DNA of 64,000 nucleotides, from assembly GCA_964438425.1 (NCBI GenBank), contig CAYTKM010000001.1, forward strand, positions 752,401-816,400. Direction: 5' to 3'. Positions 6,063 through 64,000 of this stretch are shown here, one piece after another (within the stretch, counting starts at the first letter, position 1; the number at the start of each line of letters is the position of its first letter). The notes beneath the pieces are model-generated. The model had not been told where the DNA came from. It made no database searches and saw nothing but the letters and a program-made list of their open reading frames with translations. Origin of the DNA: an uncultured Gammaproteobacteria bacterium (GTDB lineage: Bacteria > Cyanobacteriota > Vampirovibrionia > LMEP-6097). The position numbers were made by a program, and so were the translations under genes.

Positions 6063-6064
6063 AG

Positions 6065-6574
6065 TTATTTTTTAGAGACCATGTATCTTTCGGAAGCTCT
6101 TTTAAGTAGACTTACTGTTTCGTATGAACCTACATACTTACCATTTAAATATTGCTTGACAAAACTATGAGCTACTAAATTATCTTTTTCATCAAAAGAA
6201 AAATAATCTTTAGATCTAACAAACCACTTCTTGTCATAGGCTTGAATAAACTTATTATCGCGCTCCCAGACTAGACTATCGTCATTATTGAGTTTGACGC
6301 GTCTGTTTGCTACTAAATCCCAATGAGTGTCTAGCCACTCAGGTTTAACTTCACCTTGATTGAATTTAAACCTGAGTGTTGACTTTGCACTTTTTCCTTC
6401 TTCCACGTATTTGCAATCTGAGGAGATTACATATGTCTGTGCTTTCCATGTACCAAAGAGTCTCAAGTCTATTACATTAGTTGAAGCGCCGAGCTTAAAG
6501 GGAGTAAGTGCCTGGCAGCCTGAACTTAAAGTTAGACATGATAGTAAAGCTAAAACTGTAAACTTTTTGAACAT
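6065..6574 (-). CDS. Hypothetical lipoprotein
   Basis: ORF 169 aa; signal peptide with lipobox MFKKFTVLALLSCLTLSSGC. Confidence 0.55.
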   Translation of the reverse strand: MFKKFTVLALLSCLTLSSGCQALTPFKLGASTNVIDLRLFGTWKAQTYVISSDCKYVEEGKSAKSTLRFKFNQGEVKPEWLDTHWDLVANRRVKLNNDDSLVWERDNKFIQAYDKKWFVRSKDYFSFDEKDNLVAHSFVKQYLNGKYVGSYETVSLLKRASERYMVSKK

Positions 6575-7009
6575 GATTATCTCCTCTTTTTAATAACGGT
6601 AACTAGCTACTAATCTTTAAAAATAGTTAGTATAAAAAATAATTTTGTTTAATTATCTTTACTAAATTAATGCCCGCGATTAATAATAAGACGCGTAGAC
6701 TATTAACCTAAAAATAGTTTTTAAAGTGGTTTTTATGGCTTAAAAATCAAATTAAGCGCTAAGGTTCCCTAAATATTAGCTTTATTTCTATAATTTTAAA
6801 CTTTAGATAAGACTTTAGCTGATATTGAAGGAGAACCATCTCAGGGTTTTAAGCACAAGGCAAGGCTGAGCCACCAGGCACCGTTTTTAAAACGGATTGA
6901 ATTATGCTTTATCGTATAGCTTACACGGAAACTATTAAAAGATCTCTCTCTGTTAGATTAGATACAATTTATACTAAGATATCTTCTAGTATTAGTAATG
7001 TTTATAGCC

Positions 7010-7882
7010 TTATAATAACTCTTTAAAATCTTTAAAGTGCGGTGCAGTTAAGGTTAGCTTTTCTTTAGTAATAGGGTGCAAAAAGGTAAGTGAACGTGCA
7101 TGTAGCATATGGCGTCTCGGGTTTACTTTAGAGTTAAAACGCTCTGCATAAAAGCTATCACCTAAAATAGGATGCTTTAAGTATTCCATATGTACTCTAA
7201 GTTGATGAGTACGACCTGTTTGTGGGGCTAGCTTTACTAAACTATAATTTTTATCAGGGTAAGTTTTTATTAGTTCAACTTTAGTAATGGCACGCTTGGC
7301 TACTTTAATTTTAGAATCAGCTTTTTTTACGCCCCATTTTTGAAAATGTTTGCTTTTAGAAAGTAAGACTAACTCATTGTCGATAGTTTGCTTGAAACTA
7401 GCTGAAACTAAGCCGTCTATTAAAGCTTCATAAGTTTTAGTAATTTTTTTTTCTTCAAATAGCTCAAAAAAATACTTGCTGATTTCTTTATTCTTACTAA
7501 AAATTATTACACCACTAGTATCTTTATCCAGTCTATGTACTGGTTCGATAAAAGAATACTCTTTAGTATCTATAAAAGCCTGATGTAAGTTTGAAGCTTT
7601 AGTACTAGTATTTAAACAGGGGAATAATGGCTCTTTATTATAGGCTATAAAATAATCATCTTCGTATATAATAAGTTCTTTTTTTATGGTAAGCTTCGCT
7701 CGCGCAGTTTTTTTAACAAGCTTAAAGCTGACTTTATCTTTTGCTGGGTCGATTTTACGAGTAATAAATCTTTCGATTTTGCCATTAACTAAACAATTAC
7801 CTTGCTCTAGTGAGTACTTCAAAGTTTTAGTACTTTCATCGGGGTGTTTTCTTTGCAAAAATTGTTTTAAAGTAACTTTCAT
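7010..7882 (-). CDS. RluA-family RNA pseudouridine synthase with N-terminal S4-like domain (RluC/RluD-like)
   Basis: Catalytic motif HRLDKDTSGVIIFSKN; N-terminal S4-like segment ending LVNG; 290 aa. Confidence 0.8.
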   Translation of the reverse strand: MKVTLKQFLQRKHPDESTKTLKYSLEQGNCLVNGKIERFITRKIDPAKDKVSFKLVKKTARAKLTIKKELIIYEDDYFIAYNKEPLFPCLNTSTKASNLHQAFIDTKEYSFIEPVHRLDKDTSGVIIFSKNKEISKYFFELFEEKKITKTYEALIDGLVSASFKQTIDNELVLLSKSKHFQKWGVKKADSKIKVAKRAITKVELIKTYPDKNYSLVKLAPQTGRTHQLRVHMEYLKHPILGDSFYAERFNSKVNPRRHMLHARSLTFLHPITKEKLTLTAPHFKDFKELL

Positions 7883-8255
7883 TTAATTCATATAAAATTT
7901 CATAGAGCTAAAGGTCATAAGTTTAATAACTTGCTCTAGAAACAAAAAGTCAAATCTTAGAAGCTATCTTCTTAGAGACAATTATCAGAACTACCAGGCT
8001 CTACCCTAAAATCTTAACATCAAATAATAAACTTTAAGTGCTAGTTAGTCTGAGCTTGAATTACTTGTTTTAGTTAATCTGGGATAAAAATAGCTGGAAA
8101 CTAAAAAAAACAGCTGCAAAAGTGTCTAAGTCTAGCTACTAAGTTTAGACATGATAAAGTTAGGGTAAGTAATATAATAAGTAATTAGCTTCAATCAGCT
8201 TTTATAAGATATATGCTTAAGATAAAGAACATTAATACTAAAGGAGCAAACAAAG

Positions 8256-9554
8256 ATGTTTGATGAACAAGAAAGCTGGTGGAAGTACACTTTAGATGGT
8301 GCAACCTGTTTTGATGCGAAGTCCTGCTTCGCTGCTAACCGCAAGAAGAACTTACATGGTCAGGAGATTAACGATCAGTTACTATCCTATTTAAATACTT
8401 GTAAACGTGAAATTTTGATGGAAATTCCGTTAAGACTAGATGATGGTTCACTGATGCCAGTTCATGCCTACCGAGTGCAACATAATAATGCACGTGGACC
8501 TTTCAAGGGTGGTATCAGGTATCACGCCGAAGTTAATTTAGCTGAAGTACGTGAAATGGCTAATTTAATGACCTGGAAAACGGCATTAGTGGATATTCCT
8601 TATGGCGGCGCCAAGGGTGGGGTGGCTGTTGACCCTAAAAAACTTAGTTTTCATGAGCTTAGAAGATTAACGAAAGCACTTGTTGCACATTTGGGTAATA
8701 ATATTGGTCCTCATATCGATATTCCAGCACCAGATGTAAACACGACACCCCAAGTTATGGCATGGATTTATGATGAATTTTCTAAAACTCACGCTGAAAA
8801 CTCACCGCTAGCTGTGGTTACTGGTAAACCGATAGAAATTGGTGGCTCGCAGGGGCGTTTAGAAGCTACTGGACGCGGAGTCGCGATCTGTTTAAGAGAA
8901 GCTTGCAAATATAAAAAACTTGATCCTAAAGAACTTACAGTCGCTGTTCAAGGTTTTGGTAATGTAGGTTACTACGCCGCGCGTATTATGCAAAATGAGC
9001 TGGGGGTGAAAGTGATCGGTGTTAGTAATGCACTGGGCGCAGTTTATAATCCTAAAGGTATAGATGTTGAGAAGCTAAAAAAATACGAAGATGAAAATAA
9101 TTTTCGATTTGATGGTTTTGAAGGCGGAGAGATGATACCTCGCGATGAGCTATTACTCGTCGATTGTGATGTTTTAGTGCCAGCAGCTTTATCTAAAGCA
9201 GTTAATACTAAAGTAGCTAAAGCAAATAATCGTATGAAAATCTTACTAGAAGCAGCAAATGGACCGACTACACCTGAAGCTAATGCTATTTTATATGAAA
9301 AAGGCGTCTTAATCGTGCCTAGTATTTTAGCGAATGCTGGTGGTGTAATTGTTAGTTACTTCGAGTGGGTTCAAAACTTACAGCAGTTTTACTGGTCATA
9401 TGAAAAGGTGGTAAAAGAACTTGAAAGTCGCATGTGCCTAGCGTTTAATAACGTAGCGAAACTGGCTGATGAAACAGAAACTGGCTTTAGGCAGGCTGCT
9501 TATTGTATCGCTTTAAATAAAGTTGCTAGTGCCTTAATTTTAAGAGGTTTTTAA
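8256..9554 (+). CDS. gdhA: Glutamate dehydrogenase (short hexameric GdhA/RocG type)
   Basis: Motif IPYGGAKGGVAVDPKK (catalytic Lys region), Rossmann GFGNVGYYAA; strong SD AAGGAG 8 nt upstream of ATG; 432 aa. Confidence 0.9.
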   Translation: MFDEQESWWKYTLDGATCFDAKSCFAANRKKNLHGQEINDQLLSYLNTCKREILMEIPLRLDDGSLMPVHAYRVQHNNARGPFKGGIRYHAEVNLAEVREMANLMTWKTALVDIPYGGAKGGVAVDPKKLSFHELRRLTKALVAHLGNNIGPHIDIPAPDVNTTPQVMAWIYDEFSKTHAENSPLAVVTGKPIEIGGSQGRLEATGRGVAICLREACKYKKLDPKELTVAVQGFGNVGYYAARIMQNELGVKVIGVSNALGAVYNPKGIDVEKLKKYEDENNFRFDGFEGGEMIPRDELLLVDCDVLVPAALSKAVNTKVAKANNRMKILLEAANGPTTPEANAILYEKGVLIVPSILANAGGVIVSYFEWVQNLQQFYWSYEKVVKELESRMCLAFNNVAKLADETETGFRQAAYCIALNKVASALILRGF

Positions 9555-9606
9555 AAAGATCTTTAAACTTGAAATTTACTAGGCTGATAAGGAATATAAT
9601 AGTTAT

Positions 9607-9714
9607 ATGTTAGGAATTGCAATTTTAGGAACCTTAGTGGTCGTGGTTGGCACGGTCGGCTATGTAGTCTTTAAATCTTTTAATGATGATCATGAAGATC
9701 GTGAAAGCTACTAA
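9607..9714 (+). CDS. Possible small hydrophobic protein (35 aa, single TM) immediately upstream of trpA
   Basis: Manual translation MLGIAILGTLVVVVGTVGYVVFKSFNDDHEDRESY*; stop 4 nt before trpA ATG; codon usage unusually G/C-rich for this genome; below ORF-track length cutoff. Confidence 0.3.
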   Translation: MLGIAILGTLVVVVGTVGYVVFKSFNDDHEDRESY

Positions 9715-49745: not shown

Positions 49746-50666
49746 TTATAAGGCAAATTTAAGATGGTTTATTAAATTTAAAGTATCTATCTTGAGCTGT
49801 GAAAGCGGCTCCGATTTGATTAAGAGCTCTTTATAAAAGTTGACTAAAGACTTAAGTAACAGGCTTTTTTCACTTTCAGAAATTTTAAAACTCTTCAAAT
49901 CCAATATTAATTGATACACTTTTTTATTATTGAAGCTGTTATAACGGCTAACATCATAAAAGTTAGCTTCTGAATCGACATTAATATCTAAACCAGATTC
50001 AGTATCTATTTTTACTGGAATAGCTAAAGGTAAGTCTATCTTGTTATAAGACTCTTCGATATAAAAAGCTGGCTCGTAGCAAGGTAATTCTCGTTTATTT
50101 TTAATAGAAGTCAATTTAAAGCCAAGGTCTTTAATAAATTCACTGCGCACACCCTGTGATAAACAGTCACCATCTAAATTGTTTAGTTTATCTATTAAGT
50201 ACAAATCCTGATTTAACTTCTCTATATCCAGCTCCGTTCTATCCAGACCGAAAATATACTTATCAATAGCAAAGTTCACGGCGTAGAGTTTATAGTCATA
50301 CTCAATATCAAATTGATTATTATTAACTAATTTGCCAGCTATATTTTTTTCGTAATGCAACTGCTCAGCTTGTAAAATTTTCTTTAAACGACGATCAAGA
50401 CTACCTGACCATTTATTTTTATGGTTTAGTTTTAAATTATCAATTTCGGTTTGTAGGTTTTGATAGGTTTTTTCATCAAGCTTGATAATTTTATTTTCTA
50501 AACCATTAATAATGTAATGTAACATTACCGATTTTTGTTGTATGTCAGCTCTAGCTAGCCTATCGATAATTTCATCGATAGCTGTACTACCTAAAATTTC
50601 CCAAAAAAAACTATCATGCTTTGAGGCAAATTGGTTTGAAGTAAATTCTGAAAACTTTTGCTTCAT
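49746..50666 (-). CDS. Hypothetical protein (306 aa), ORFan
   Basis: Long ORF, Asn/Lys/Asp-rich, no motif recognised. Confidence 0.45.
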   Translation of the reverse strand: MKQKFSEFTSNQFASKHDSFFWEILGSTAIDEIIDRLARADIQQKSVMLHYIINGLENKIIKLDEKTYQNLQTEIDNLKLNHKNKWSGSLDRRLKKILQAEQLHYEKNIAGKLVNNNQFDIEYDYKLYAVNFAIDKYIFGLDRTELDIEKLNQDLYLIDKLNNLDGDCLSQGVRSEFIKDLGFKLTSIKNKRELPCYEPAFYIEESYNKIDLPLAIPVKIDTESGLDINVDSEANFYDVSRYNSFNNKKVYQLILDLKSFKISESEKSLLLKSLVNFYKELLIKSEPLSQLKIDTLNLINHLKFAL

Positions 50667-50779
50667 TCATGTGCAGATAATATCATGATACCGATAGCTA
50701 AATCAAGAATTAATGCAGATGATCTACTTAGCCTGATAAGTATGGTTTTACCTTAAGGTATAATCTAGTTAAGGTATTT

Positions 50780-52189
50780 ATGAGCGAACTAAGGTATGAA
50801 TTATTAGAAGACTTTAAAGATTATAATCAGTCTTCGCTACTAAGAATTAGTCTTCAAGAATACGCTGAAAAAGGCGCTGATGTGTTTAATGCAGATAAAA
50901 CAAAAGACATCGTTCCTAATGCTATTACTAATAGCTATCCGCACGCTTTATCACTAGCTAGAATTGTGGTAAGTCAGCTTAAAAAAATTACACTTTTAGC
51001 CGATGAGAAATTCTTGGTACTTGAATGTGGCTGTGGTTCAGGGCTATTTACCAGAAATTTTCTAACAGCCTGCCGTAATTTAGAGATTTTAGATAAAATT
51101 CACTATTTAGCGAGTGATTTTGCAGAAACATTTTTAAATCAAATCAAACTCAGTGACTTACTTTGCGATTTTAATGAAGGTGAGCATTATAGTTTGATCA
51201 CTTTAGACTTGTTGAATATAGATCTATGTAAAAATTTAACTACCAGTCAGTCCTATGATTTAAAAAATTTGGATTTCGTGATTCTAAACTATGTTTTAGA
51301 TGTCTTACCGATGAGTGTTTATAAAAAAGTGCTACCTAATGAAGCTGCGGGCGCTAGTGAAGATGTTATTGATAGTGAAAGCAAGCTTATCAATGACAGA
51401 AATATTGAAGCTGAAACCTTAAAGCATAGTCCTAAGTTTCAAAAATTACAGCTAAAGCTAAGCAAACCTGAGGCTAAACAATCAGTACTGGCTGAATTAA
51501 AGGTAGAGGAGCGCTGGCAGGAGACTGATTTTAATGAACTTGAGAAACTTGAATTTAAGCATCTTGAAGTGCTTAAGTCATACGCAGATGTTTTTGCGCC
51601 AGACACTCGTCTTCACTTTAGTTATGGAGCAGTCGAGGTTATTAAGCAGCTGATTATTAAGTTAAGTGAACGTGGCTTTATTTATGCCTGCGAGGTGCCG
51701 TTTGCTAAATACTATGAGACTACGAACTATCAGATTTATAATAACGTACTTGTACATATGATTAATTTAGGGCAATTAAAGCTAAGTCTAGTCGATGAAA
51801 CACCAGCTGACACTTATGGTGATAATTATTTTCAAAGATTAATCATAGCTAAAAATTCAGAGACCTATAAAAGTTATCAGCTAGCTTTCAAAAGAGAATT
51901 TATCTACGAAAATAATACTACAGCTTACTATGAGATTAAACAAGCAATTAGAAAGCTAAAATCTCCCCAAAGCATAAAATATAGCTGGCCTTTAATTGAA
52001 AATTTAAAGACTCTAGACCCAGTTTCAGCGACTTACTGGTATTTTAAGGCTGAGTATCATAATCTTACCTATGAGCTTACAGAAGCTTATCAAGCTTATT
52101 TAAAAGTGCAGGAATTAGATATAACTTCTGAGTATGAAATCAAAGAAAAGCTAGCTAGTTTAGCTAAAGCTTTGCAAATAAATAATTAA
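50780..52189 (+). CDS. Class I SAM-dependent methyltransferase-like protein (possibly MidA/NDUFAF7-like) with helical C-terminal region
   Basis: Motif I-like FLVLECGCGSGLFTRNFL (compare MidA LVELGPGRGTL); 469 aa. Confidence 0.5.
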   Translation: MSELRYELLEDFKDYNQSSLLRISLQEYAEKGADVFNADKTKDIVPNAITNSYPHALSLARIVVSQLKKITLLADEKFLVLECGCGSGLFTRNFLTACRNLEILDKIHYLASDFAETFLNQIKLSDLLCDFNEGEHYSLITLDLLNIDLCKNLTTSQSYDLKNLDFVILNYVLDVLPMSVYKKVLPNEAAGASEDVIDSESKLINDRNIEAETLKHSPKFQKLQLKLSKPEAKQSVLAELKVEERWQETDFNELEKLEFKHLEVLKSYADVFAPDTRLHFSYGAVEVIKQLIIKLSERGFIYACEVPFAKYYETTNYQIYNNVLVHMINLGQLKLSLVDETPADTYGDNYFQRLIIAKNSETYKSYQLAFKREFIYENNTTAYYEIKQAIRKLKSPQSIKYSWPLIENLKTLDPVSATYWYFKAEYHNLTYELTEAYQAYLKVQELDITSEYEIKEKLASLAKALQINN

Positions 52190-52224
52190 GCTTACTAAAA
52201 GCCATTTGGCATATAATTTATTGA

Positions 52225-52977
52225 ATGTCTAACAACCAAATCGATGAATTTGCTAAGTGCTTTGATGATATTGCGGAAGACTTAGCTTGGTATTTAAAGC
52301 GTAATTATAAAAGTAGAATTAGATACCAGACTCATAATATAGAAACTAGCTTTAATAAAATTTTAGATAAAATTCAGGAGTTGGATGATTATATGTTTAA
52401 TACAGGTGATATCGAATTTTTGCATTCATGTCGATATTTAAGAAATTATATATTTCATAACAATCACCATCAAGCGATTAAAGATCTTAATAAAAGCTTT
52501 GTTACTAAGTTTAAAAAAATTCACCGTAAAGTATGTAAACCGATTACTGATGCTGAAGGGTTTAAGTCGGTTAGACAACTGCAAACAGCTAAGTGGACAG
52601 ATAAAGTGGAAAAACATGTCAAGCTGATGAAGTTACATGATCTACGTTTCATACCTATCTTAGTTAAAGGTAAACTGGATGGTATATTTAGTAGAAACAC
52701 TTTTTATGAAGCTTGCATAGACTCTGAAGCCTTTTATTACGATAGTACTACTAAATTAAATAATCCTGACCTTAAAAACTACATAAAATTTGATGAGAAA
52801 ATGATGGACTACGTGAAATTTGTGCCTAATAACTTACCGATATTCCTTATTGATGAAATATTTTATAAAGAAATGAAAAAGGGTAGTAAAACCAGCTTGC
52901 TGATAGTAACTGAAGATGGTAAAGCTAACCAGAAGGTTGAAGGTATGTTTAGCATCTGGGGGCTGTCAAGTTTATAA
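52225..52977 (+). CDS. Hypothetical protein: N-terminal helical domain with HEPN-like Rx4H motif + C-terminal CBS-pair-like region
   Basis: CRYLRNYIFHNNHH (R-x4-H); CBS-like strand-helix motifs FIPILVKGKLDGIFSRNTFYEA and SLLIVTEDGKANQKVEGMFSIWGL; 35 nt downstream of the MTase-like gene. Confidence 0.45.
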   Translation: MSNNQIDEFAKCFDDIAEDLAWYLKRNYKSRIRYQTHNIETSFNKILDKIQELDDYMFNTGDIEFLHSCRYLRNYIFHNNHHQAIKDLNKSFVTKFKKIHRKVCKPITDAEGFKSVRQLQTAKWTDKVEKHVKLMKLHDLRFIPILVKGKLDGIFSRNTFYEACIDSEAFYYDSTTKLNNPDLKNYIKFDEKMMDYVKFVPNNLPIFLIDEIFYKEMKKGSKTSLLIVTEDGKANQKVEGMFSIWGLSSL

Positions 52978-53010
52978 GTTGAAGATAATAGGCTAATTTA
53001 AAGTTTTAAA

Positions 53011-54003
53011 TTAATCCACTGCGTTTTCAAGTTCACTACCATCAATAAATTCAGCGAAGTTCTTAATAGTAGTACCAGCAATATTTAATAGAGCGTTTCT
53101 AGTTAAAAACGCCTGGTGACCGGTCACTAGAACATTTGGGAAGCTTAGCAGTCTGGTTAGTTGATCGTCGTCAATTATTTTATCTGAGACATCTTCAAAA
53201 AATATGCCAGCTTCTTCTTCATAAACATCTATACCTAAGTAAGCAATTTTCTTAGACTTTAAAGCCTGGATCGCAGCTTTAGTGTCGATTAAAGCACCTC
53301 TACTAGTATTAATAAGCATGACACCAGTTTTCATCTGAGCTATTAGTTTTTCATCAATCATATGATGAGTATCTGGAGTTAAAGGGCAGTGCAGGCTTAT
53401 AATATCTGACTTACTAACTAATTCATCAAGCTCAACTTTAGTTACGTTTTCAGGTTCTTTTTTTAAATAAGGGTCAGCTACCAGTACTTTTGCGCCGAAA
53501 CCATTTAAAATATTAGCCATACATTCACCAATCGCACCATAGCCGATTAAGCCGACATTTAAACCATGTATATCAAAACCTTCCAGACCAGCTAAAGCAA
53601 AATTACCTTCGCGCACACGGTTATAAGCTTTATGAGTTTTACGGTTTAAAGTTAAAATTAGTGACATAGCATGCTCAGCTACCGCATACGGTGAGTACTT
53701 AGGTACTCTAGCTACTTTAATACCGTATTTTTTGCAGGCATCTAAATCTACATTGTTAAAACCCGCACATCTAAGTAAAATTAACTTAATGCCGAACGTA
53801 TTTAATTTTTCTATCACATCAGCGCCGCAGTGATCATTTACAAATATACAGATCGCTTCATAATCTTTAGCTAGATCTACAGTCTTTAAATCTAAAGCTG
53901 GCTCGATATATTCAAATTCTATATCTTTTGAAGCAGATTTATCTAAAGCCTGCTTAAAGTGCTCGACTTCGTATTTTTTACTATTAAACATTAAACATTT
54001 CAT
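53011..54003 (-). CDS. D-isomer-specific 2-hydroxyacid dehydrogenase (D-lactate dehydrogenase-like), NAD-dependent
   Basis: Rossmann GLIGYGAIGECMANILNGFGAKV, catalytic R/E/H context (TSRGALID, VTGHQAF); 330 aa. Confidence 0.85.
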   Translation of the reverse strand: MKCLMFNSKKYEVEHFKQALDKSASKDIEFEYIEPALDLKTVDLAKDYEAICIFVNDHCGADVIEKLNTFGIKLILLRCAGFNNVDLDACKKYGIKVARVPKYSPYAVAEHAMSLILTLNRKTHKAYNRVREGNFALAGLEGFDIHGLNVGLIGYGAIGECMANILNGFGAKVLVADPYLKKEPENVTKVELDELVSKSDIISLHCPLTPDTHHMIDEKLIAQMKTGVMLINTSRGALIDTKAAIQALKSKKIAYLGIDVYEEEAGIFFEDVSDKIIDDDQLTRLLSFPNVLVTGHQAFLTRNALLNIAGTTIKNFAEFIDGSELENAVD

Positions 54004-54297
54004 TACTTTAGACCTTTACTTATTAAATATTATTTGTGTTTTTAAACAAGCTTAAAACTCACTAACTCTCTAGTGAATGCTATTTACACTTAACTTAATA
54101 CTATTTAAGTTATTTCCTTTGTCACTTAAATAGCGAAACCATAATACAGCTTAGCTAAGTAATACAATGGTTTCAAATATTTATAATATCAAATAAGCGC
54201 TTAATAAATAATATGGAATTAAATTTATTTTTTCATTACAAAATTCCAATTAATGCAAGCAGCAGTAAGTAGTAGTTTTATTATAAATAATAATTAG

Positions 54298-56400
54298 CTA
54301 ACTAGCGCTGGTCGCTGGTTGTGATTCTACTTTACGAAAAACTGAGCGGCTAAGAATCACCGCAACATCTTCTATGTCAGGAGCTTTAGCAATGCCAGTT
54401 GTGTTAGCTGAACTTAACATTATATTACAGTATGGACAAGCTACCGCGACTTTATCAGGGCTATGCTCAGCTAGCTGCTCTAGTCTGTAAGCGTTAATCT
54501 CGCTACCAGGCATTTCATACCAGATCTGCGCGCCGCCGCCGCCACAGCAGGTGCTTTGGGTTTTTTCTTTAGCAATGGCTTTTAATTCGACTCCAGGAAT
54601 ATTTTCTAAAATATAACGTGGTGGATCCATCACGCGGTTGTATCTGGCTAAATAACAAGGATCATGGTAAGTAATAGTTTCATTAAGTTCGATGCTTGGT
54701 CTAAGTTTGTTGTTGGCGATTAGGTCAGCTAGAATTTCACTATGATGATAGACTTCTACATTTTCTAAACCGAAGTTTGGATATTCGTTTTTAAAAGTAT
54801 TATAAACATGCGGGCATTGCGTGATAATTTTTTTCACTCCGTAAGCTTTCATAATCTCGATATTTTCTATCACGATCTCTTGATACATCGCTTCATCGCC
54901 CGCGCGGCGCGCTACATCACCTGAGCTTTGTTCCTCTTTACCTAAAACTGCGAACTTTAAACCAGCTTCACTAAATAGCCTAGCGTTAGCGATAGTCACT
55001 TGCATATTTTTACTGTCGTAAGCACCTGGGCTACCTACCCAGTATAGGTATTCAAAGTTTTCAGAGTTTTTAGCTAGTACCTGGATGTCTAGATTATGAT
55101 CTTCTGTTACAGTTTTAATCCAGTTTAGTCTATCAGCAGCTGGCAAACCCCAAGGATTAGATTTAGTACGTACATTTTTTAAAGTGCTTTGCAGGTTGGC
55201 TGGAGCTTTATTACTAGCTAGTAAACCACGGCGCATATCAACTATGCTATCAACATGTTCGATTAGTACCGGGCAAGCTTCCACGCAGGCATAGCAGGTA
55301 GTACATGACCATAAAACATCTTCAGAAATGTGACTGTAAATGTCGCTTTTATTTTCAGTATCTGTGTAAGATAGCTGCTTAATATCTAGCATTAGGTGTT
55401 TAGGAGAAAGTGGTTTATCAGTGTTAACAGCCGGGCATTCCACGTGGCAGCGCCCGCAAGCAGTGCAAGCTTCACTATCCATTAGGGTTTTCCAGCTCAA
55501 ATCTTCATAGTTAAAAACACCAGCATTAAACTGCTCTTCATCGATCTCGATGCCCTTTTCTTCAGCTTCGAGCATATCCATTAATTTAAAAGGCGTATTT
55601 AGTTCACCGCGCGCGCGTCTAGATTTAAAAAAGATACTAAGCGGAGCAGTCATAATATGAATAAATTTAGTACGTGGTAATAGTGCGATAAAAGTAAAGG
55701 TAAGTACAGCATGTAGCCACCATAGACTTTGATGCGCGCTAGCTTGGTCAGCTGGAGTCATAAAACGAAATAGACTAGCTAGAGAATTACCTATAAAAGC
55801 ATAAGGCTCACTGGCATTAGTGCCAGCTATTCTTAAAGCCTCAGTTAAAAAACCAGTAATAACGAAAGCAAGTAGATAAGCAGGTTGAATCCAGTCATGT
55901 TGTCTACGATCAAGTTCACGTGGGTTAATGATGTATCTTCTCACGGTAAAAGCGATCACCCCTAAGAGTAAAAATAGCCCACCAATTTCAGCAGCTACGC
56001 TAATTAATTTGTAAAAACTACCCTGGAAAAAGTATGGACCTATATCCTGGGTGTAATCTTGCACGGCAACTATATTAGTTACTATCCACAAGGTCATGAA
56101 ACCTAAAAATACACCGATATGCGCTAAGCCTGGAACTTTACGTTTAGCTGTTTTTTTCTGCAAGAAAGCATACTGGAAAACATATTTAAGGCGACCTAAT
56201 AGATTATTAGTACGCGGCTCATATGGCATAGATTTGCCGTTAGTGATAGTTTTTAATCTTTTATATAAACCTGTAAGGAAAAACCCTACGCTAACTACAG
56301 CTAAAGCATAAAAAACGAAATGATGCCAGAAACCATGAAGGTTCCACCAAAGCTCACGCGTATCAAGGTTTACATTTGGTAATATTAAGTTGTATTCCAT
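54298..56400 (-). CDS. Membrane-anchored Fe-S oxidoreductase: N-terminal NarI/HdrE-like di-heme b domain fused to HdrD/GlpC-like 2x[4Fe-4S] + two CCG domains
   Basis: Five to six N-terminal TM helices with conserved His (HGFWHHF, HIGVF, HQSLWWLH); ferredoxin motifs CTACGRCHVECP and CTTCYACVEACP; CCG motifs ...ITQCPHVY... and TCCGGGGAQIW; 700 aa. Confidence 0.75.
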   Translation of the reverse strand: MEYNLILPNVNLDTRELWWNLHGFWHHFVFYALAVVSVGFFLTGLYKRLKTITNGKSMPYEPRTNNLLGRLKYVFQYAFLQKKTAKRKVPGLAHIGVFLGFMTLWIVTNIVAVQDYTQDIGPYFFQGSFYKLISVAAEIGGLFLLLGVIAFTVRRYIINPRELDRRQHDWIQPAYLLAFVITGFLTEALRIAGTNASEPYAFIGNSLASLFRFMTPADQASAHQSLWWLHAVLTFTFIALLPRTKFIHIMTAPLSIFFKSRRARGELNTPFKLMDMLEAEEKGIEIDEEQFNAGVFNYEDLSWKTLMDSEACTACGRCHVECPAVNTDKPLSPKHLMLDIKQLSYTDTENKSDIYSHISEDVLWSCTTCYACVEACPVLIEHVDSIVDMRRGLLASNKAPANLQSTLKNVRTKSNPWGLPAADRLNWIKTVTEDHNLDIQVLAKNSENFEYLYWVGSPGAYDSKNMQVTIANARLFSEAGLKFAVLGKEEQSSGDVARRAGDEAMYQEIVIENIEIMKAYGVKKIITQCPHVYNTFKNEYPNFGLENVEVYHHSEILADLIANNKLRPSIELNETITYHDPCYLARYNRVMDPPRYILENIPGVELKAIAKEKTQSTCCGGGGAQIWYEMPGSEINAYRLEQLAEHSPDKVAVACPYCNIMLSSANTTGIAKAPDIEDVAVILSRSVFRKVESQPATSAS

Positions 56401-56432
56401 TTATAGTAATAATATAGCCTAAATTTAAACAA

Positions 56433-59400
56433 ATGTCCGTTAACACTACCTTAAACACTCCTGAAATTTTTCATAAGCCATTATTCATAAAGCAACTAGC
56501 TAAAAAAGTGATCATTTATGACGGTGCTATGGGCACTAACCTCTTTAGTTATGATCTAAGTATAGAAGATTATGGTGGCGCCGAATATGAAGGCTGCCCT
56601 GAAAACCTAAACTATACTAAACCTGAGATAATTCAGGAAATTCATCGAAATTTTTATCAAGCTGGCGCTGATATTGTCGAAACTAATACCTTTGGTGCTT
56701 CGATTATTACGCTAGCTGAGTATAACCTTCAAGACAAGTGTAGAGAAATTAATATGCTCGCCGCTGCGCTGGCTCGCGAAGTTGCAGCTGAGTTCACCGC
56801 AGCCGAGCCCGCTAAGCCACGTATGGTCGCGGGCTCGATCGGTCCTGGAACTAAGCTGCCATCTTTAAATCATGTCGGCTTTGATGAACTTAAAGAATCA
56901 TATAAAGTGCAGATTAGAGCTTTAGTGGATGCGCTGGTTGATGTGATTTTAATTGAAACCTGTCAGGATCCTTTGCAGATTAAAGCCTGCATGATCGCTT
57001 GTTTTGAAGCTTTTCAGGATATTGAAGCTGAAAATAGTGAGCTTACTAATGAGCAGTTAGCTGAAAAATACCCGAATGCTGTCATCTATGAAAATGATAC
57101 CAGTGGGCGCGCAGGTCTTTATCAAAGATTTCGAGTGCCACTACAAGTGCAGGTGACAGTCGAGCAAATGGGAACTTTGCTAGTAGGCTCAGAACTTTCA
57201 AGCGCACTTACGACTGTTTCAGCTTACCCGATAGATATTTTCGGTATGAACTGTGCGACTGGTCCTAAAGAAATGCAGGAGCATTTGCAGTATCTGTCAC
57301 TAAACTCTCCATTCCAGATTAGTTGTTTGCCGAATGCTGGTATTCCAGAGAATGTATGTGGTCACGCGCATTTCCCGCTTAAGGCAGGTGAATTTACAGA
57401 ATACATGACTAAATTCATAGATAAGTATCAGCTAAGGGTAGTCGGTGGTTGTTGTGGTACTAGCTACGACCATATAAAGATGCTAAATGATGCTTATGAG
57501 GCTAGTGCTACTGCTAGTAAAGATCAAGCTAGGCTAGATTCGCTTTCGGAAACTAGCACTCTAAACCAGGACTTAGATAAAAACGATGTTTCTGATGAAG
57601 TCCAGAATGAAAGCAGCCATAGTAACTTTGCATGTGAAAGTACGAAAAATAATCTAACCAGTCCACAAAGCACTGAAAATAAACCTATATATAAAGACTC
57701 TGAAACTTTAATGGAAGCTTCAGCCCAGCCGATGGGGCGTAGACTTGAAAGTAACATTTTTAACTATGTTTCAAGTGTTTACGGTAATTTAGATATGGAC
57801 TTGGAGACTAAGCCGATTATAGTCGGTGAAAGAACTAATGCTAATGGCTCTAAAAAATTCCGTGATTTGCTGGCGGCTGAAAACTACGAAGAGATTATAG
57901 ATCTGGCTAAAGAGCAGTTAGCTGAAGGCGCGCAAATTTTAGATCTTTGTGCTGCGTTTGTCGGACGCGATGAGTCGCGTGATATGCAGGAGATTTTAAA
58001 AAGAGCTAACACTGCAGTTAATATTCCGATTATGATCGATAGCACAGAATCCAATGTGATTGAGGATTCCTTAAAGCTCATTTCAGGTAAATCGATTATT
58101 AATTCGGTAAACCTGGAAGATGGCGAAGAGCGCGTAGCTGAGATCGCTAAGCTTTGTAATAAATATGGCGCAGCGCTAGTAGTTTTAACTATTGATGAAA
58201 AGGGCATGGCTAAATCGATCGAAGATAAAGTTAGTATTGCTAAGCGTTTGTATGATCTGTTAGTTAACAAGCATGGTATGCGACCGTATGACCTGATTTA
58301 TGACACGCTAACTTTTACTTTGGGTTCAGGAGATGAGGAGTTTCGTCCAGCTGGCATTAATACCATCGAAGCGATTCGCGAGTTAAAGCGCGCCTTGCCT
58401 CACGTTAAAACTATTTTAGGGGTCAGTAACATTTCCTTTGGTTTAGATGCTAAATTGCGCCCAGCACTTAATTCTGTATTTTTATTTGAGGCGGTGAAAG
58501 CTGGCTTGGATATGGCGATTGTTAATAATAAAAAGATTATTCCTTTACATAAGATAGATGACGAGCTTAAGAAATACTGTTTAGACTTAGTCTATGACAA
58601 GCGTGAATTTAATGATCAAGAGGAAACTACTTACGATCCGCTAACTAAACTTATCGGTCTTGCTGAAAATGTAACTGCGTTTGATAACTCCCAGAAAAAT
58701 CCTTATGAAAAACTAACGACTGAAAAAACATTGGAACAAAGAATCATCGATGGTAATAAAACTAATATTGATGTTGACTTGCAGTTAGCTTTAGATAAAG
58801 GTTATAAACCACTTGAAATCATTAACGGCTTTTTAATGGATGGTATGAAAATTGTCGGTGAGCGTTTTGGAGCTGGTGAAATGCAGTTACCGTTTGTCTT
58901 ACAGTCCGCTACCACCATGAAAGCTGCGGTTGCGTACTTAGAGCCGTTTATGGAAAAGCTGGATGCTTCTAGTCATAAAGGCTCAATGGTACTTGCGACT
59001 GTTAAAGGTGACGTGCATGATATTGGTAAAAATCTGGTAGATATCATTTTAAGTAACAATGGCTATAAAGTGCATAATTTAGGTATCAAACAGCCTGTTG
59101 AAGAGATTTTGAAAGCTGTTGAAGCTCACAAACCTGACTTAGTAGCGCTTTCTGGTCTGCTGGTTAAATCCACTTTAATCATGAAGCAGAATCTGGAGGT
59201 TTTTAATGACAGGAATATAGACGTGCCAGTTATTTTAGGTGGCGCGGCGCTAACTAGAAAGTTTGTTGAGCAGGATTGTGCGGGGCTTTATAATGGTGAA
59301 GTTTATTATGGTGTAGATGCCTTTACTGATCTTGATATCATGGAAGATTTATGCGTGCATAAGATCTCAGCAGCCGAGGTGCGCGAAAAATATCATAAAG

Positions 59401-60335
59401 TGAAAAGTGCTGATAATGACGATCAGGCTTATGAAGTTGTCAGTGAGCAAGAGGAAGAAGAAAATCTACGCAAAGCTATAGAGTTTACTAGTAAACTCTC
59501 TGAAACTAAGATTCTAACCCCAGCTGAAGTGCCTGTGGCGCCGTTTTATGGTTTTAAACATTTAGGCAGTCAGGACATACCTTTAGGTGAAATCTGGCAT
59601 TACTTAAATTTAGATGCCATGATCATCGGACAGTGGCGTATGGGTAAAGGTAAGATGAGCGTTGAGGAGTACGCTGAGCACCGCCGACATGTAATTATGC
59701 CTATTTTAGAGCGTTTGAAACGTGAAACACTTGCTAGTAATTGGTTGCAGGCTCAAGCTGCTTATGGTTATTTCTATGCTAAAGTTGATCCTGAAAATCC
59801 TAATAAACTAAATATATATGATGAGCAGCGTGAAAATATCATCGAAACTTTTGTCTTTCCGCGTCAGTCAGAGAAAAAGAATTTATGCCTGACTGATTAT
59901 TTCAGATTAAGTGATCCTGAAGCCTTTAATTTAGTCGGTTTTCAAATCGCGACCATCGGCGAGTCGGCAGCGAACTTCGTGCAAAAACTCTACACCAGTG
60001 ATGAGTATAGTGAATATTTATATTATTATGGTTTCGCCACTGAATGCACTGAAGCTACAGCTGAGTGGGTGCACGCTAGAGCGCGCCGTGAATTAGGTTT
60101 CGGGGCTGAAGATGTGGCTGAGGTACCTAAGTTACTGCGTGGTGGCTATCATGGTATGCGCTTTAGTTTTGGTTATCCAGCTTGCCCGCGCCTAGAGGAC
60201 CAGGAACAGCTCTTTAGATTATTAAAGGCTGATGATTTAGGTCTTAAGCTGAGTGAAGAGTGGCAGATTCACCCTGAACATAGTACAAGTGCGATCGTGA
60301 TTCATCATCCTGAGGCTAAGTATTTTAATATTTAA
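56433..60335 (+). CDS. metH: Cobalamin-dependent methionine synthase MetH with ~75-aa low-complexity linker insertion (1300 aa)
   Basis: Hcy-binding domain (GGCCGT region VVGGCCGTSYDHI), pterin-binding domain, B12-binding DVHDIGKN (DxHxxG), C-terminal AdoMet activation domain; low-complexity insertion SKDQARLDSLSETSTLNQDLDKNDVSDEVQNESS... between Hcy and pterin domains. Confidence 0.95.
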   Translation: MSVNTTLNTPEIFHKPLFIKQLAKKVIIYDGAMGTNLFSYDLSIEDYGGAEYEGCPENLNYTKPEIIQEIHRNFYQAGADIVETNTFGASIITLAEYNLQDKCREINMLAAALAREVAAEFTAAEPAKPRMVAGSIGPGTKLPSLNHVGFDELKESYKVQIRALVDALVDVILIETCQDPLQIKACMIACFEAFQDIEAENSELTNEQLAEKYPNAVIYENDTSGRAGLYQRFRVPLQVQVTVEQMGTLLVGSELSSALTTVSAYPIDIFGMNCATGPKEMQEHLQYLSLNSPFQISCLPNAGIPENVCGHAHFPLKAGEFTEYMTKFIDKYQLRVVGGCCGTSYDHIKMLNDAYEASATASKDQARLDSLSETSTLNQDLDKNDVSDEVQNESSHSNFACESTKNNLTSPQSTENKPIYKDSETLMEASAQPMGRRLESNIFNYVSSVYGNLDMDLETKPIIVGERTNANGSKKFRDLLAAENYEEIIDLAKEQLAEGAQILDLCAAFVGRDESRDMQEILKRANTAVNIPIMIDSTESNVIEDSLKLISGKSIINSVNLEDGEERVAEIAKLCNKYGAALVVLTIDEKGMAKSIEDKVSIAKRLYDLLVNKHGMRPYDLIYDTLTFTLGSGDEEFRPAGINTIEAIRELKRALPHVKTILGVSNISFGLDAKLRPALNSVFLFEAVKAGLDMAIVNNKKIIPLHKIDDELKKYCLDLVYDKREFNDQEETTYDPLTKLIGLAENVTAFDNSQKNPYEKLTTEKTLEQRIIDGNKTNIDVDLQLALDKGYKPLEIINGFLMDGMKIVGERFGAGEMQLPFVLQSATTMKAAVAYLEPFMEKLDASSHKGSMVLATVKGDVHDIGKNLVDIILSNNGYKVHNLGIKQPVEEILKAVEAHKPDLVALSGLLVKSTLIMKQNLEVFNDRNIDVPVILGGAALTRKFVEQDCAGLYNGEVYYGVDAFTDLDIMEDLCVHKISAAEVREKYHKVKSADNDDQAYEVVSEQEEEENLRKAIEFTSKLSETKILTPAEVPVAPFYGFKHLGSQDIPLGEIWHYLNLDAMIIGQWRMGKGKMSVEEYAEHRRHVIMPILERLKRETLASNWLQAQAAYGYFYAKVDPENPNKLNIYDEQRENIIETFVFPRQSEKKNLCLTDYFRLSDPEAFNLVGFQIATIGESAANFVQKLYTSDEYSEYLYYYGFATECTEATAEWVHARARRELGFGAEDVAEVPKLLRGGYHGMRFSFGYPACPRLEDQEQLFRLLKADDLGLKLSEEWQIHPEHSTSAIVIHHPEAKYFNI

Positions 60336-60657
60336 CTAGTTTTTGTTTTAATAATTTGAAGTGTTTATTTGATATTTGAAACTGATAGTCCGCAAATAGG
60401 CACTAACTAGTCGAGCTTCTTGGCGCATACGCTTAATGATTTCCAAGATATTTTTCACTTGAAAAAATTAGTTCTCTCTAGATGTTTTTGCACTTTTGTA
60501 CTTAAATTTTCATGGAAATACCAAAATTTCTTTCTTTTTTTAGAGATTTAGCTTAAATATAAGTAAAAATGGCACTTAATTAAACATAATATGCTCCAAT
60601 GGAGTAAATGTGCTGCGCCATGACATATAAATTTTAAAAACTATAGCTGTAAATTAA

Positions 60658-60909
60658 GAAACTAGTGCTCCCAATTTGAAAACTAGTGCTTCCAATTTGG
60701 AAACTAGTGCTGTAACTTCGAAAACTAGTGCTCCCACTTAAGAAACTAGCGCTCCCACTTTAGAAACTAGTGCTCCCACTTAAGAAACTAGTGCTCCCAC
60801 TTTAGAAACTAGTGCTCCCACTTTGGAAACTAGTGCTCTCAATTTGGAAACTAGTGCTCTCAATTTGGAAACCAGTGCTGTAAATTAAGAAACTAGCGCT
60901 GCAACTTCA
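60658..60909. repeat. Tandem array: 12 exact-period copies of a 21-bp unit GAAACTAGTGCT-CCCACTTTA (conserved 5' 12-mer, variable 3' 9-mer), non-coding
   Basis: Units read directly at 60658, 60679, 60700 ... 60889 (every 21 nt); degenerate extra copy at ~60641; stops in all six frames. Confidence 0.9.
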
Positions 60910-61070
60910 AATAAGAATTCTTAGCTAAAGCTATTAATTTGCATTTGAAGCTAATTTGAAGTTTCAATTATTCTTGAGATTAACATTTAACAATTACTAG
61001 TGTTTGTCGAGACACCAGAATATAATCTCTAGATTAAGGAATGTGACATTAAGATGTCAGGATGAAAAAA

Positions 61071-64000
61071 TTATAAAGGCATAACGTTTTCATGCTTTAA
61101 ATCGTCTTGAAGATTAGTTTGAATTGGTAAATATTCAAAGATTTGATTGATTTTCTGATTAACCAAATCGTCAAAATTTGAATCCGAATCTGAAAGAAGG
61201 CTTTCAAGACCATCGTGCTTTTCTTGACTATGGAATTTATATCTATTGTCGTCTAGTACTCCTTTTAGTGGTTTTTTCAAAAATTCAAGGTCTATATAAT
61301 GAATTTTAAAACCCAAATTCTTGCTAACTTTATCATAAGTGTATATAGCTGTAAGTAGTATTCTGAAATTAGCAATAAACAGTACGGCTAAATCTTTTAG
61401 ATTGTAATAATTATTTCTTATATACCAACCTGATGAATTACCTTGATCAGCAAATCTCTCTTTTTCATATAAAATTCCAAAATATTCAGCATAAGCTTTC
61501 AAATAATACTTAACTTGATTATATCCTTGATTTACTACATATTCATTAGGTTGACTTGTTTCAAGCTGAGATGCCTTTTTTTGCAAAGCCTGTAAATGAG
61601 ATTTAATTTCACATACTGTTTCGTGAAATTGATCTGAGTTTTGGTTAGATATTAGTTCTTCTATTCTCTCTATAAATCTATCTACTTTTTGAGTATCGAA
61701 TACATCATGCATAGGTCGCTTACATCTAAAAGCATTATTTAGAGAAGTGAATGACGTACTTTCAAACTCATTAAGCCTATTACCTATTTGGTGGGGGGCA
61801 CTATGAATATCGGGTTCATCAGACATGACAACACCATTTAATAATGTCCATTGCTTAATATCTGGGTCAAGTGTAAAACGAGTCTTAAATTTAGTAAGTT
61901 CATCTTTAAAATCCTTAATATTAGTAGTAGTCCGGAAATCCTCGTCGGTGATGATTCTACGATTTAATAGTTCATCTATATCAGACTTCAAATTATCCAA
62001 ATACTCTCCTGATAAAGTTTGTTGTATGCAAAGCAGTGTTTTAGAAAGTAACCTATTAAACTGTTTTTGTAAAATGTTATACATCACACTTCTATCTTCA
62101 GGTGGATTATTTAAGGATTCATCAGAAGTATTAAGTAGAGTAGTATATTGATTGAAACCAAAATTTGAATTAAAAATAAATTGATCTAAGGTATGAAAGT
62201 ATATCTGAGAAATATTGAATGTGCTGGCATTTTGATTCCAAGACTGTAGTAATTCGTTTCCAAGGTCGTATTCAAGAAAGCCAATTAACAACATATCGTA
62301 AAGTTGCTTTTTTTCTGGCTCATTGTAATTGCTATAAGTGTAATTTAAAATTACGTCTAATTTAGCTAATAGGTTGGAGCCAACTTCAAGCTCCCAATTG
62401 TTGTAGCTAGCTGGTACATGTTCAGGTTTTGTTATATCTTTAACAATATTTTCAGTCGTGTAGGTCTTATATTTATCTGAAAAAAACTTAAAAAAGTTAT
62501 ATAAAATTTTCTTTTCACCAGTAACATTGTAAATCTTTATATCCTTAAGACTAGTGGTGTTAAGAATAGCAATTTTAGCTGGATCACGATAGTAAAAATT
62601 CATACGATTAACTATCTCTAAGTTAGTAGATTTTATTTCTTTATAATTTGGACACAAAACAGTATTAAATTCATCTATTAACTCTAAATCATCTATACGA
62701 TCTTTAAGATTTTTACAAAAACAATGAAGTAATATTTCGACTGGAAAATAAATGTTTTTTTCCTTTAGAGAGATATCTAAAAAATCAAAGCAGATTTTTT
62801 CAAGTATTCTATACGAATTTATGTATTTGGATAATAGCGAAAAAGCTGTAATTAGCTTTTTTTCTTTCATTCGAGAATTATTTTCAAACAGCTGCTTAAC
62901 ATTTTCAAGAACTTCTAGTCTATTTTTTAAACTAAAGTAAGTACTTTCATAAGAAATTAACTTAATCGCTCTTTCTATAACTTTAATAACTAAACTTTCA
63001 CTACTAAATTTTACTTGGATCTCTTTATCAAAAATCTTTTCTAAATATATTGATGCTTGATTATCCATATTTGAATTTGCGTTTAAACTATTTTCAATAG
63101 AGCTATTAATTAGTAATTTATCGTATGCTACGAAAATGTAAGTATTAACGAAATCTAGCCTATTTCTGATTAAACCTAAAATATTACGGATATCTTCCTT
63201 GTCTAGTAGACGATCAATATTATCTATGAAAATAAATATTTGCCTGTTATTTTCGAAGATTTTGTTATTGATGTCTCTAAGATTTTGATTAATATTGTCA
63301 TTAATTAGAAATGAATTAAAGTAACTGATCCATGGGTGCAGGGAAGATATTTGAGCTATATAACGTTGTAGATTTTTATTGATGGTGGGTATCTCGCTAA
63401 TTAGTTTGTCTTCAATCTGATCTAAGAAATTTCGAATTAGAAGATCACTTTTTAGAAGATCACTTTTTGAATCGTATTGCCATAAGTCAAAATCTATAAT
63501 AATAGGGTCTGTGCACGCTAAAAAATTTAAAGCTGGACTGTTAGTCTGACCTTCAATAATACTTTTAATTGCTTGCATGTAACTTGACTTGCCAGTCCCC
63601 CAGCCACCAGTGATACCTGTAATAAAACTGTTTCTGGTTTGCGATGATATTTCTTCTTTTAAAGGAGATTCACTCTTATTATTTATTAAGTTATATATAG
63701 AAGTCACATGCTGGAGAACCTCTATTTTAATAGATTCGTTGTAATTTGAAAAACTATAAAGCTGATTTAGGCTTGTGACTTTAGTGCTTTGAGTTTCATT
63801 TAAATAATTACCTAAGTCTATAAAATTCACATAGTCTTCTTCACTGTTAATAGCATTACTTTGATTTAAACTCTCACGATCATCTAAGTATTCTAGTAGA
63901 ATATCGAGTGCACTTTCAGTTGGTACTTTAGTCGCTTTTATATTGTTTGATAGATAAGTTATAAAACCTATAGGTAATGGCAGGATAAATAAAATTAAAT
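61071..64000 (-). CDS. KAP-family P-loop NTPase, large (>975 aa), partial: N-terminus lies beyond window end
   Basis: KAP Walker A GITGGWGTGKSSY (G-x-W-G-x-GKS) and Walker B-like IFIFIDNIDRLL; no TM insertion in the NTPase domain; ~600-aa C-terminal region without recognisable motifs; manual translation shows the frame stays open upstream of the ORF-track GTG (63828-63830) through position 64000. Confidence 0.8.
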   Translation of the reverse strand, partial: LILFILPLPIGFITYLSNNIKATKVPTESALDILLEYLDDRESLNQSNAINSEEDYVNFIDLGNYLNETQSTKVTSLNQLYSFSNYNESIKIEVLQHVTSIYNLINNKSESPLKEEISSQTRNSFITGITGGWGTGKSSYMQAIKSIIEGQTNSPALNFLACTDPIIIDFDLWQYDSKSDLLKSDLLIRNFLDQIEDKLISEIPTINKNLQRYIAQISSLHPWISYFNSFLINDNINQNLRDINNKIFENNRQIFIFIDNIDRLLDKEDIRNILGLIRNRLDFVNTYIFVAYDKLLINSSIENSLNANSNMDNQASIYLEKIFDKEIQVKFSSESLVIKVIERAIKLISYESTYFSLKNRLEVLENVKQLFENNSRMKEKKLITAFSLLSKYINSYRILEKICFDFLDISLKEKNIYFPVEILLHCFCKNLKDRIDDLELIDEFNTVLCPNYKEIKSTNLEIVNRMNFYYRDPAKIAILNTTSLKDIKIYNVTGEKKILYNFFKFFSDKYKTYTTENIVKDITKPEHVPASYNNWELEVGSNLLAKLDVILNYTYSNYNEPEKKQLYDMLLIGFLEYDLGNELLQSWNQNASTFNISQIYFHTLDQFIFNSNFGFNQYTTLLNTSDESLNNPPEDRSVMYNILQKQFNRLLSKTLLCIQQTLSGEYLDNLKSDIDELLNRRIITDEDFRTTTNIKDFKDELTKFKTRFTLDPDIKQWTLLNGVVMSDEPDIHSAPHQIGNRLNEFESTSFTSLNNAFRCKRPMHDVFDTQKVDRFIERIEELISNQNSDQFHETVCEIKSHLQALQKKASQLETSQPNEYVVNQGYNQVKYYLKAYAEYFGILYEKERFADQGNSSGWYIRNNYYNLKDLAVLFIANFRILLTAIYTYDKVSKNLGFKIHYIDLEFLKKPLKGVLDDNRYKFHSQEKHDGLESLLSDSDSNFDDLVNQKINQIFEYLPIQTNLQDDLKHENVMPL

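Follow-up and report, generated by a model that had tools for sequence, protein, structure and literature searches.

What is a row of phased 21-bp repeats doing in the gap between metH and a gene coding for a KAP-family NTPase? It could be a site bound by a protein, part of a transcript, the relic of a coding sequence, an artefact of assembly or a minisatellite with no sequence-specific role. The initial annotation of the window (the whole stretch of DNA that was analysed, 64 kb in length) had put forward an iteron-like replication or partition site, a regulator landing pad, a phase-variable minisatellite and a repetitive non-coding RNA. The analysis presented here indicates that the array is most likely a lineage-specific, non-coding minisatellite of the VNTR type, a reading in which the mode of origin and the lack of a sequence-specific function are the parts that we infer. 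Its anatomy is observed directly, and neither coding capacity nor relatives nor signatures of replication, partition, promoters or RNA were detected.

The array and the gap that holds it

The metH and KAP NTPase genes converge on a gap of 735 bp (60336-61070), as had been annotated. The array starts 322 nt past the metH stop codon, and its end is separated by 161 nt from the KAP stop codon, a distance initially given as 160 nt. The gap and its borders comprise the following features:

56433..60335, plus strand: metH, coding for a protein of 1300 aa with all five MetH domains; last gene syntenic with relatives
60420..60636, no strand: AT-rich spacer with A/T tracts roughly in phase
60637..60657, no strand: degenerate 13th unit (AAAACTATAGCTGTAAATTAA) at the left edge of the array, in phase, with 9 of 21 positions off consensus
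60658..60909, no strand: tandem array of 12 units of 21 bp with the consensus GAAACTAGTGCTCCCACTTTG, delimited by reading of the sequence, register parsing and TRF
60898..60966, no strand: AT-rich inverted repeat (long hairpin) with two extra ATTTGAAG motifs, extending from the last unit into the right flank
60997..61018, minus strand: weak terminator-like hairpin, 53 nt past the KAP stop codon, preceding the array on the KAP strand
61071..64000, minus strand: 3' part of the KAP-family P-loop NTPase gene (1089 aa in full), which continues beyond the end of the window

Each unit consists of a core, RAAACYAGYGCT, followed by a tail, NNNANTTNN. Parsing in a 21-bp register places the unit starts at 60658, 60679 and so on to 60889, with a spacing of 21 bp throughout and with neither indels nor spacers, and the phase of 21.0 bp is held across 13 units when the degenerate unit is counted. 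The array had been described as a perfect repetition of 21 bp in 12 copies; the period is indeed exact and free of indels, but the units are not identical, since 11 distinct sequences are found among the 12 (u09 = u10). Twelve is likewise the right number of units that conform to the consensus in phase, but the degenerate 13th unit at 60637-60657 had been overlooked. TRF delimits the array at 60652-60900 (period 21, 11.9 copies, 85% matches) and gives it a score of 286, compared with 74 for the second-ranked array in the window. No further copy of the unit or of its flanks was found within the 64-kb window, and the statement that nothing else there resembles the array is thus upheld. The 12-mer GAAACTAGTGCT occurs 25 times in the window with at most two mismatches, of which 12 occurrences are in phase in the array and 13 are elsewhere; none of the shuffles matched this total.

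The units vary at positions 1, 6 and 9 of the core and at positions 13, 14, 15, 17, 20 and 21 of the tail, while positions 16, 18 and 19 of the tail are also invariant. The core has five variant cells (AAAAC... twice, ...CCAG... once and ...AGCGCT twice) and includes the 6-bp palindrome ACTAGT. The alleles are ordered from GTAA/GCAA types at the edge, through CCAATTTG and CTCAATTTG types, to five central CCCACTT types; this is the order given initially, except that the allele TCCAATTTG had been left out. A 42-bp sub-pattern, DEDE, is also present. The array has a GC content of 40%, against 27-29% in the flanking spacer, and is devoid of internal 7-nt periodicity, the three heptamers of the unit (GAAACTA, GTGCTCC and CACTTTG) being unrelated to each other. 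CRISPR arrays consist of 23-47-bp repeats with unique spacers of similar length between them; no such features were detected at the array, which has no spacers, a unit of 21 bp and no match to a CRISPR family (Rfam, E <= 10).

A wedge model with assumed parameters places the starts of the most curved 252-bp segments of the whole 64 kb at 60397-60481, to the left of the array. The curved spacer (60397-60732, most strongly bent at about 60420-60690) is predicted to have a ratio of end-to-end distance to contour length of 0.40, compared with a window median of 0.90, whereas the array is predicted to be no more than ordinarily curved (24th percentile).

Several other observations were made on the gap and on the window. 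An exact 11-bp direct repeat, TAATTTGAAGT, is present at 60352-60362 and 60952-60962; its two copies are 600 bp apart and bracket the spacer, the array and the hairpin. A MITE with its target-site duplication was considered for this pair and rejected, as terminal inverted repeats are lacking and the window contains no further copy; since many exact 11-12-mers recur in the rest of the window, the pair was put down to chance. The motif AATTTGRAR is enriched in the metH/KAP gap. A reading of the array as restriction sites or as a restriction decoy was also rejected: CTAG and ACTAGT occur at the expected frequency in the window and are not avoided. GGCC is strongly avoided across the window (11 observed against 56 expected under a Markov model, ratio 0.19) and CCGG mildly so (ratio 0.61), which hints that the host has a restriction-modification system of the HaeIII type.

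Genomic context and search for related arrays

The closest relatives of metH (at most 69% amino-acid identity) are found in Caenarcaniphilales, Melainabacteria or Vampirovibrionia MAGs, and the host is a Caenarcaniphilales/Melainabacteria-like bacterium. The gene upstream of metH is syntenic in the relatives, nothing downstream of their metH matches the window, and a tandem array was found downstream of metH at none of the 19 metH loci of relatives. Synteny ends at the 3' end of metH, and the array therefore lies at the junction with the genes that follow on the other side. These are visible in a 16.5-kb contig from a JGI metagenome (L020), which is 100% identical to positions 50433-64000 of the window, i.e. 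over 13.6 kb across the array. This contig encodes the full KAP NTPase (L020:10639-13908, 1089 aa), preceded on the same strand by a 387-aa AAA_16/AAA_22 ATPase, beyond which lies a divergent gene coding for a TPP enzyme. The GC content is 28% for the KAP gene, 35% for the window and 40% for metH, and the AAA_16 and KAP genes probably form a small, acquired, low-GC island of two genes.

The KAP protein shows weak matches to PifA and QatA. Its homologues, searched with HMMER among 1.84 billion representatives (about 670 at E <= 1e-3), cover the P-loop domain only (approximately residues 200-560, about 26-41% identity); no homologue of residues 1-200 or of residues ~560-1089 was detectable among these representatives, and the sole match of the protein in a word-indexed database was itself. 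The AAA_16 protein matches Orc1/Cdc6, but this match is confined to the P-loop and reaches 25 bits against a cut-off of 181 bits; no relative was found in the PDB. Pfam, NCBIfam and PADLOC assigned the flanking NTPases to KAP_NTPase and AAA_16/AAA_22 only, and a DNA-binding domain was detected in neither protein. The 90%-identity clusters of the two proteins that flank the array have one member each, and the public records that carry the locus are one metagenome contig and one MAG contig, identical across the array.

This context bears on whether the array is real. It could be an assembly artefact, a chimeric join through the repeat or a row whose copy number has been collapsed, given that the source is metagenomic, that synteny breaks exactly at the array and that the near-identical DEDE units could be collapsed. 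However, L020 and the longer contig of the window are 100% identical throughout the 13.6 kb that span the array, the records place both flanking proteins on a single contig of 929,942 bp, and the order of the units is anchored because 11 of the 12 are distinct, and an error of this type is very improbable.

Two peculiarities of metH were observed. The linker between the homocysteine-binding match (ending at residue 354) and the pterin-binding match (starting at residue 465) is approximately 110 residues long, which is longer than expected from the canonical enzyme. In three Caenarcaniphilales/Melainabacteria MAGs (L012, L014 and L016), metH appears as two overlapping stop-to-stop segments (in L016, for example, 5980-7947 and 7940-9691), which could reflect a frameshift, a truly split gene or a sequencing error.

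Related arrays were searched with a pattern of two cores 21 bp apart, which fixes 11 of the 21 positions. This pattern had no match in GTDB (one genome for each of 185,579 species) and none in IMG/VR, and blastn of the array against PLSDB (72,556 plasmids) and against 50,697 phages returned nothing. Among the contigs of metagenomes (241 million records), eight matches were obtained, two of which are arrays: (i) L022 (704-852) has 7 units of 21 bp, GAAACTAGCGCT+TGTAAAAGT, and (ii) L023 (1-889) has 42 units of 21 bp, TAAGCTAGTGCTGCAACGTTA, approximately 70% identical to the array of the window by blastn. Neither contig has ORFs under any bacterial code, L022 contains further minisatellites, and both look like eukaryotic DNA. 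They were therefore not retained as homologues of the array: beyond the positions imposed by the pattern, 6-7 of 10 positions match, which is within chance because 11 of the 21 positions are forced, the comparison is the best of many unit pairs and 241 million records were searched. Their likeness to the array is probably due to chance matches. As side observations, the minisatellites of L022 and L023 share a CTAGYGCT core with the array, and the frame (AALAYNV)n of L023 is nearly open (2 stops in 306 codons).

The other six metagenome matches are two-copy motifs or coding repeats. Paired AAACTAGTGCTAGTT motifs, 21 bp apart, were noticed in L021:4982-5013, L025:11422-11453, L027:2011-2042 and L028:8674-8705; these are four related AT-rich contigs in which the stretch with the motifs is apparently non-coding and the flanks are otherwise conserved. 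The pairs might be a conserved operator-like site in a genome that is perhaps plastid-like. A looser pattern (three times CTAGYGCT) gave 26 matches in IMG/VR, which were discarded as relatives since, judged by eye from their repeat units, they resemble coding heptads rich in T, S and A on phage or giant-virus contigs. In the literature, the core of the array is named solely as a primer sequence, and no report was found that links KAP NTPases to such arrays or that describes 21-bp intergenic arrays in bacteria.

Candidate roles of the array

If the array had a role, it could be that of a phased protein-binding array (iteron-like, centromere-like or a pad for a regulator or a nucleoid protein), in which the 12-nt core with its ACTAGT palindrome would be recognised and all sites would face the same side of the helix. 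The AAA_16/KAP pair might encode the protein or cooperate with it, in a layout like that of sopA-sopB-sopC. Like iterons, the array consists of direct repeats in the range of 17-22 bp whose core is conserved; the 21.0-bp period, kept without indels over 13 units, amounts to exactly two helical turns, strongly curved AT-rich DNA is predicted next to the array, and the core, which contains the 6-bp palindrome, is better conserved than the tail, although this constraint is of marginal significance. The array lies 161 nt past the last gene of an operon of two NTPases, but no member of a Rep, ParA/ParB or integrase family was found among its neighbours (metH, KAP NTPase, AAA_16 ATPase and TPP enzyme), nor any DNA-binding domain. 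Housekeeping genes are present on both sides, which gives the array a chromosomal context, and no plasmid or phage matches it; the proposal of an iteron or of a replication or partition site is accordingly not sustained. The same applies to the proximity of a replication origin or terminus, for which a check had been suggested: the cumulative GC skew climbs steadily through the array (54-64 kb) without a switch. No DnaA box (TTWTNCACA) is present within about 30 kb, and an AT-rich spacer predicted to be curved lies beside the repeats. A role in regulation also fits poorly with the position. Indeed, no gene starts beside the array because the gap is convergent, and a promoter scan beside it gave nothing above the shuffle expectation, so that there is no promoter to regulate and the idea of a regulator landing pad is not supported. 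The idea of a phase-variable minisatellite finds no support either, as the array is located in neither a promoter nor a coding region. Motifs of the MetJ, TrpR or CsrA type seem implausible because of the host lineage and the position of the array.

One further locus speaks for a binding array. The best-scoring homologue of the KAP protein (P0003) is encoded on L058 (ENA ERZ26165795 contig_78), a contig of 29% GC with Bacteroidota-like neighbours, and just past its operon an array with a 21-bp period and about 13 units is present (L058:6451-6723). Its units have the core AAAAGTTTA, followed by 12 variable nt, and show a 63-bp super-period; a palindromic insert of 42 bp (6493-6534) preserves the phase. 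The array starts 70 bp past the ORF that follows the KAP gene and ends approximately 100 bp before the next gene. The arrays of L058 and of the window thus agree in period, copy number and position, but their unit sequences differ: 9 of 21 positions match and the sequences are unrelated. No comparable array was found at L087 and L088-L091, the loci of the two closest relatives of P0003, at four other KAP loci (L059-L063) or at the 23 KAP loci present in 200 kb of viral contigs. As one of about 30 KAP loci has such an array, no association between KAP NTPases and arrays is established, and it is very unlikely that some KAP-NTPase defence-type islands carry, at their 3' end, a helically phased array of about 13 units of 21 bp that would act as a landing pad for the NTPases of the island or for a host factor. 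The roughly 30 other loci without an array, including those of the closest relatives of the L058 protein, also count against the binding array in general, which on the whole of this evidence is rather unlikely.

The array might instead be transcribed on the KAP strand, into the 3' end of the operon transcript or into a repetitive RNA of its own, in which a row of hairpins (GUUUCNNAARUGGGAGC) would act as stacked weak terminators or as a sponge for an RNA-binding protein. On the minus strand, hairpins of 6-7 bp (-2.6 to -5.9 kcal/mol) are predicted at 7 of the 12 unit junctions, two of them flagged as terminator-like, and the plus strand mostly cannot form them because the G·U pairs become C·A; nevertheless, the hairpin is broken at 6 of 13 junctions and, although it recurs, no covariation supports it, as 378 of 500 shuffles score at least as well. 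The whole array folds with a z-score of -4.9 against shuffles on the minus strand, but the plus strand also reaches -3.9, and low values on both strands are expected since any repeat with the palindromic ACTAGT core gives them. Rfam returned no match for the array, either at the gathering score or at E <= 10, and there is no promoter; the repetitive ncRNA proposed initially is therefore not borne out. Moreover, the two hairpins that precede the array on this strand may already end the KAP transcripts, and the layout is not that of a type III toxin-antitoxin system, as no ORF of at least 40 aa follows the array on either strand. A functional RNA is accordingly improbable.

The array could also descend from a gene with heptad repeats that has since decayed; these would read (ETSAPTL)n if translated from the plus strand, and (KVGALVS)n or (QSGSTSF)n if translated from the minus strand. 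In favour of this, the period is divisible by three, and heptads with ACT-AGT-GCT (T-S-A) seem, by eye, to be frequent among those coding repeats, of phages and others, that share the core pattern. Stops are present in all six frames, at least three in each, in agreement with the initial annotation of the array as non-coding. Three frames have just 3-4 stops in 91 codons, but this is near the random expectation for AT-rich codons. The core changes at positions 6 and 9 would be synonymous in the plus frame; however, the changes per codon position in this frame number 4, 7 and 6, without an excess at third positions. No remnant of an ORF was found in the flanks of the array, and a protein search with the four least-interrupted translations gave no match. 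A coding relic is therefore very unlikely.

Divergence of the units and comparison with known systems

From u00 to u12, the units differ from the consensus at 9, 1, 3, 4, 3, 2, 2, 1, 0, 2, 2, 7 and 5 positions: the central units are alike, and those at either edge have diverged. In tandem arrays, such a pattern is expected from slippage or unequal exchange, and selection is not needed to produce it. The DEDE pattern and the adjacent identical units u09 and u10 point to recent block duplications, and the segmental duplication suggested initially agrees with the internal order of the units, which fits growth through duplicated units.

The core had been called essentially invariant. It does vary less than the tail: 5 of 144 cells are variant in the core against 27 of 108 in the tail (Fisher P = 4e-7 with the units treated as independent), and the per-site difference among distinct units is 0.07 in the core (12 nt) against 0.35 in the tail (9 nt), approximately fivefold. 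However, the units descend from one another by duplication, and cells can therefore not be counted as independent. When changes are counted by the Fitch method along a neighbour-joining tree of the units, 5 fall in the core and 12 in the tail (binomial P = 0.02), or 8 and 12 when the degenerate unit is added (P = 0.09), so that the constraint is weak once shared descent is counted (P 0.02-0.09). The edge units are off at 4-6 of 9 tail positions yet have retained the core. These figures hint at a constraint on the core, and the retention of the core in the edge units could reflect selection on it.

The array is an uninterrupted head-to-tail repetition of a unit of the 10-100-bp range, with the unit pattern of slippage or unequal exchange, as in minisatellites. 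It resembles intergenic minisatellites and VNTR (MLVA loci, mycobacterial MIRU-VNTR) in its head-to-tail units of tens of bp, in its intergenic, non-coding position, in its variant-rich units with a homogeneous centre and decayed edges and in the absence of an associated gene function. Nonetheless, VNTR are defined by length polymorphism from strain to strain, whereas the array is known from two identical records, and MIRUs are dispersed families, whereas the unit of the array is a singleton within the 64-kb window.

Other systems share some of these traits. The iterons of plasmids (pSC101, R6K, RK2, P1 and F; 17-22 bp, bound by Rep) are also conserved-core direct repeats of about two helical turns with AT-rich bent DNA alongside, which is predicted here; the array differs from them in lacking a rep gene, DnaA boxes and a plasmid or phage setting, in lying in a convergent chromosomal gap and in its 13 contiguous units, which exceed the usual number. 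The sopC site of the F plasmid (12 tandem repeats of 43 bp after sopA-sopB) is similar in having approximately 12 units directly past a two-gene NTPase operon and a short palindrome in each unit, but the array has AAA_16 and KAP instead of ParA/ParB as neighbours, a unit of half the length and a chromosomal context, and a binding protein is hypothetical here. ToxI of type III toxin-antitoxin systems (5.5 repeats of 36 nt upstream of toxN) is likewise a tandem non-coding array beside a defence-type gene; however, the array of the window is downstream of KAP and convergent with metH, its unit is 21 instead of ~36 nt, and there is neither a toxin ORF after it nor a promoter. The heptanucleotide STRR repeats of cyanobacteria are tandem and intergenic in the same phylum, and 21 is 3 x 7, but the array lacks a 7-nt periodicity, and heterocystous cyanobacteria have numerous STRR copies scattered over the genome.

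Taken together, the array is somewhat better than evenly likely (probability of approximately 0.55) to be a minisatellite generated by slippage or unequal exchange, without a sequence-specific role, at the junction between the core genome and an acquired island. A 21-bp seed would have been duplicated in the AT-rich spacer where metH abuts the low-GC AAA_16/KAP island, and replication slippage and/or unequal recombination would then have lengthened the row; repeated exchange would keep the central units alike, and the edge units, engaged in fewer exchanges, would decay. Against the minisatellite weigh the contrast between core and tail, the period of exactly two turns, the higher GC content of the array and the array of L058.

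KAP NTPases of the PifA/QatA type act in defence, and little is known of the nucleic acids with which they interact. The core would matter more if it were a protein-binding site tied to the KAP and AAA_16 NTPases, for which the coincidence with L058 is the sole support. If the array is only a minisatellite, its main value would be practical: it could mark strains of an uncultured cyanobacterial lineage that is non-photosynthetic, and signal the junction between the core genome and an acquired island.
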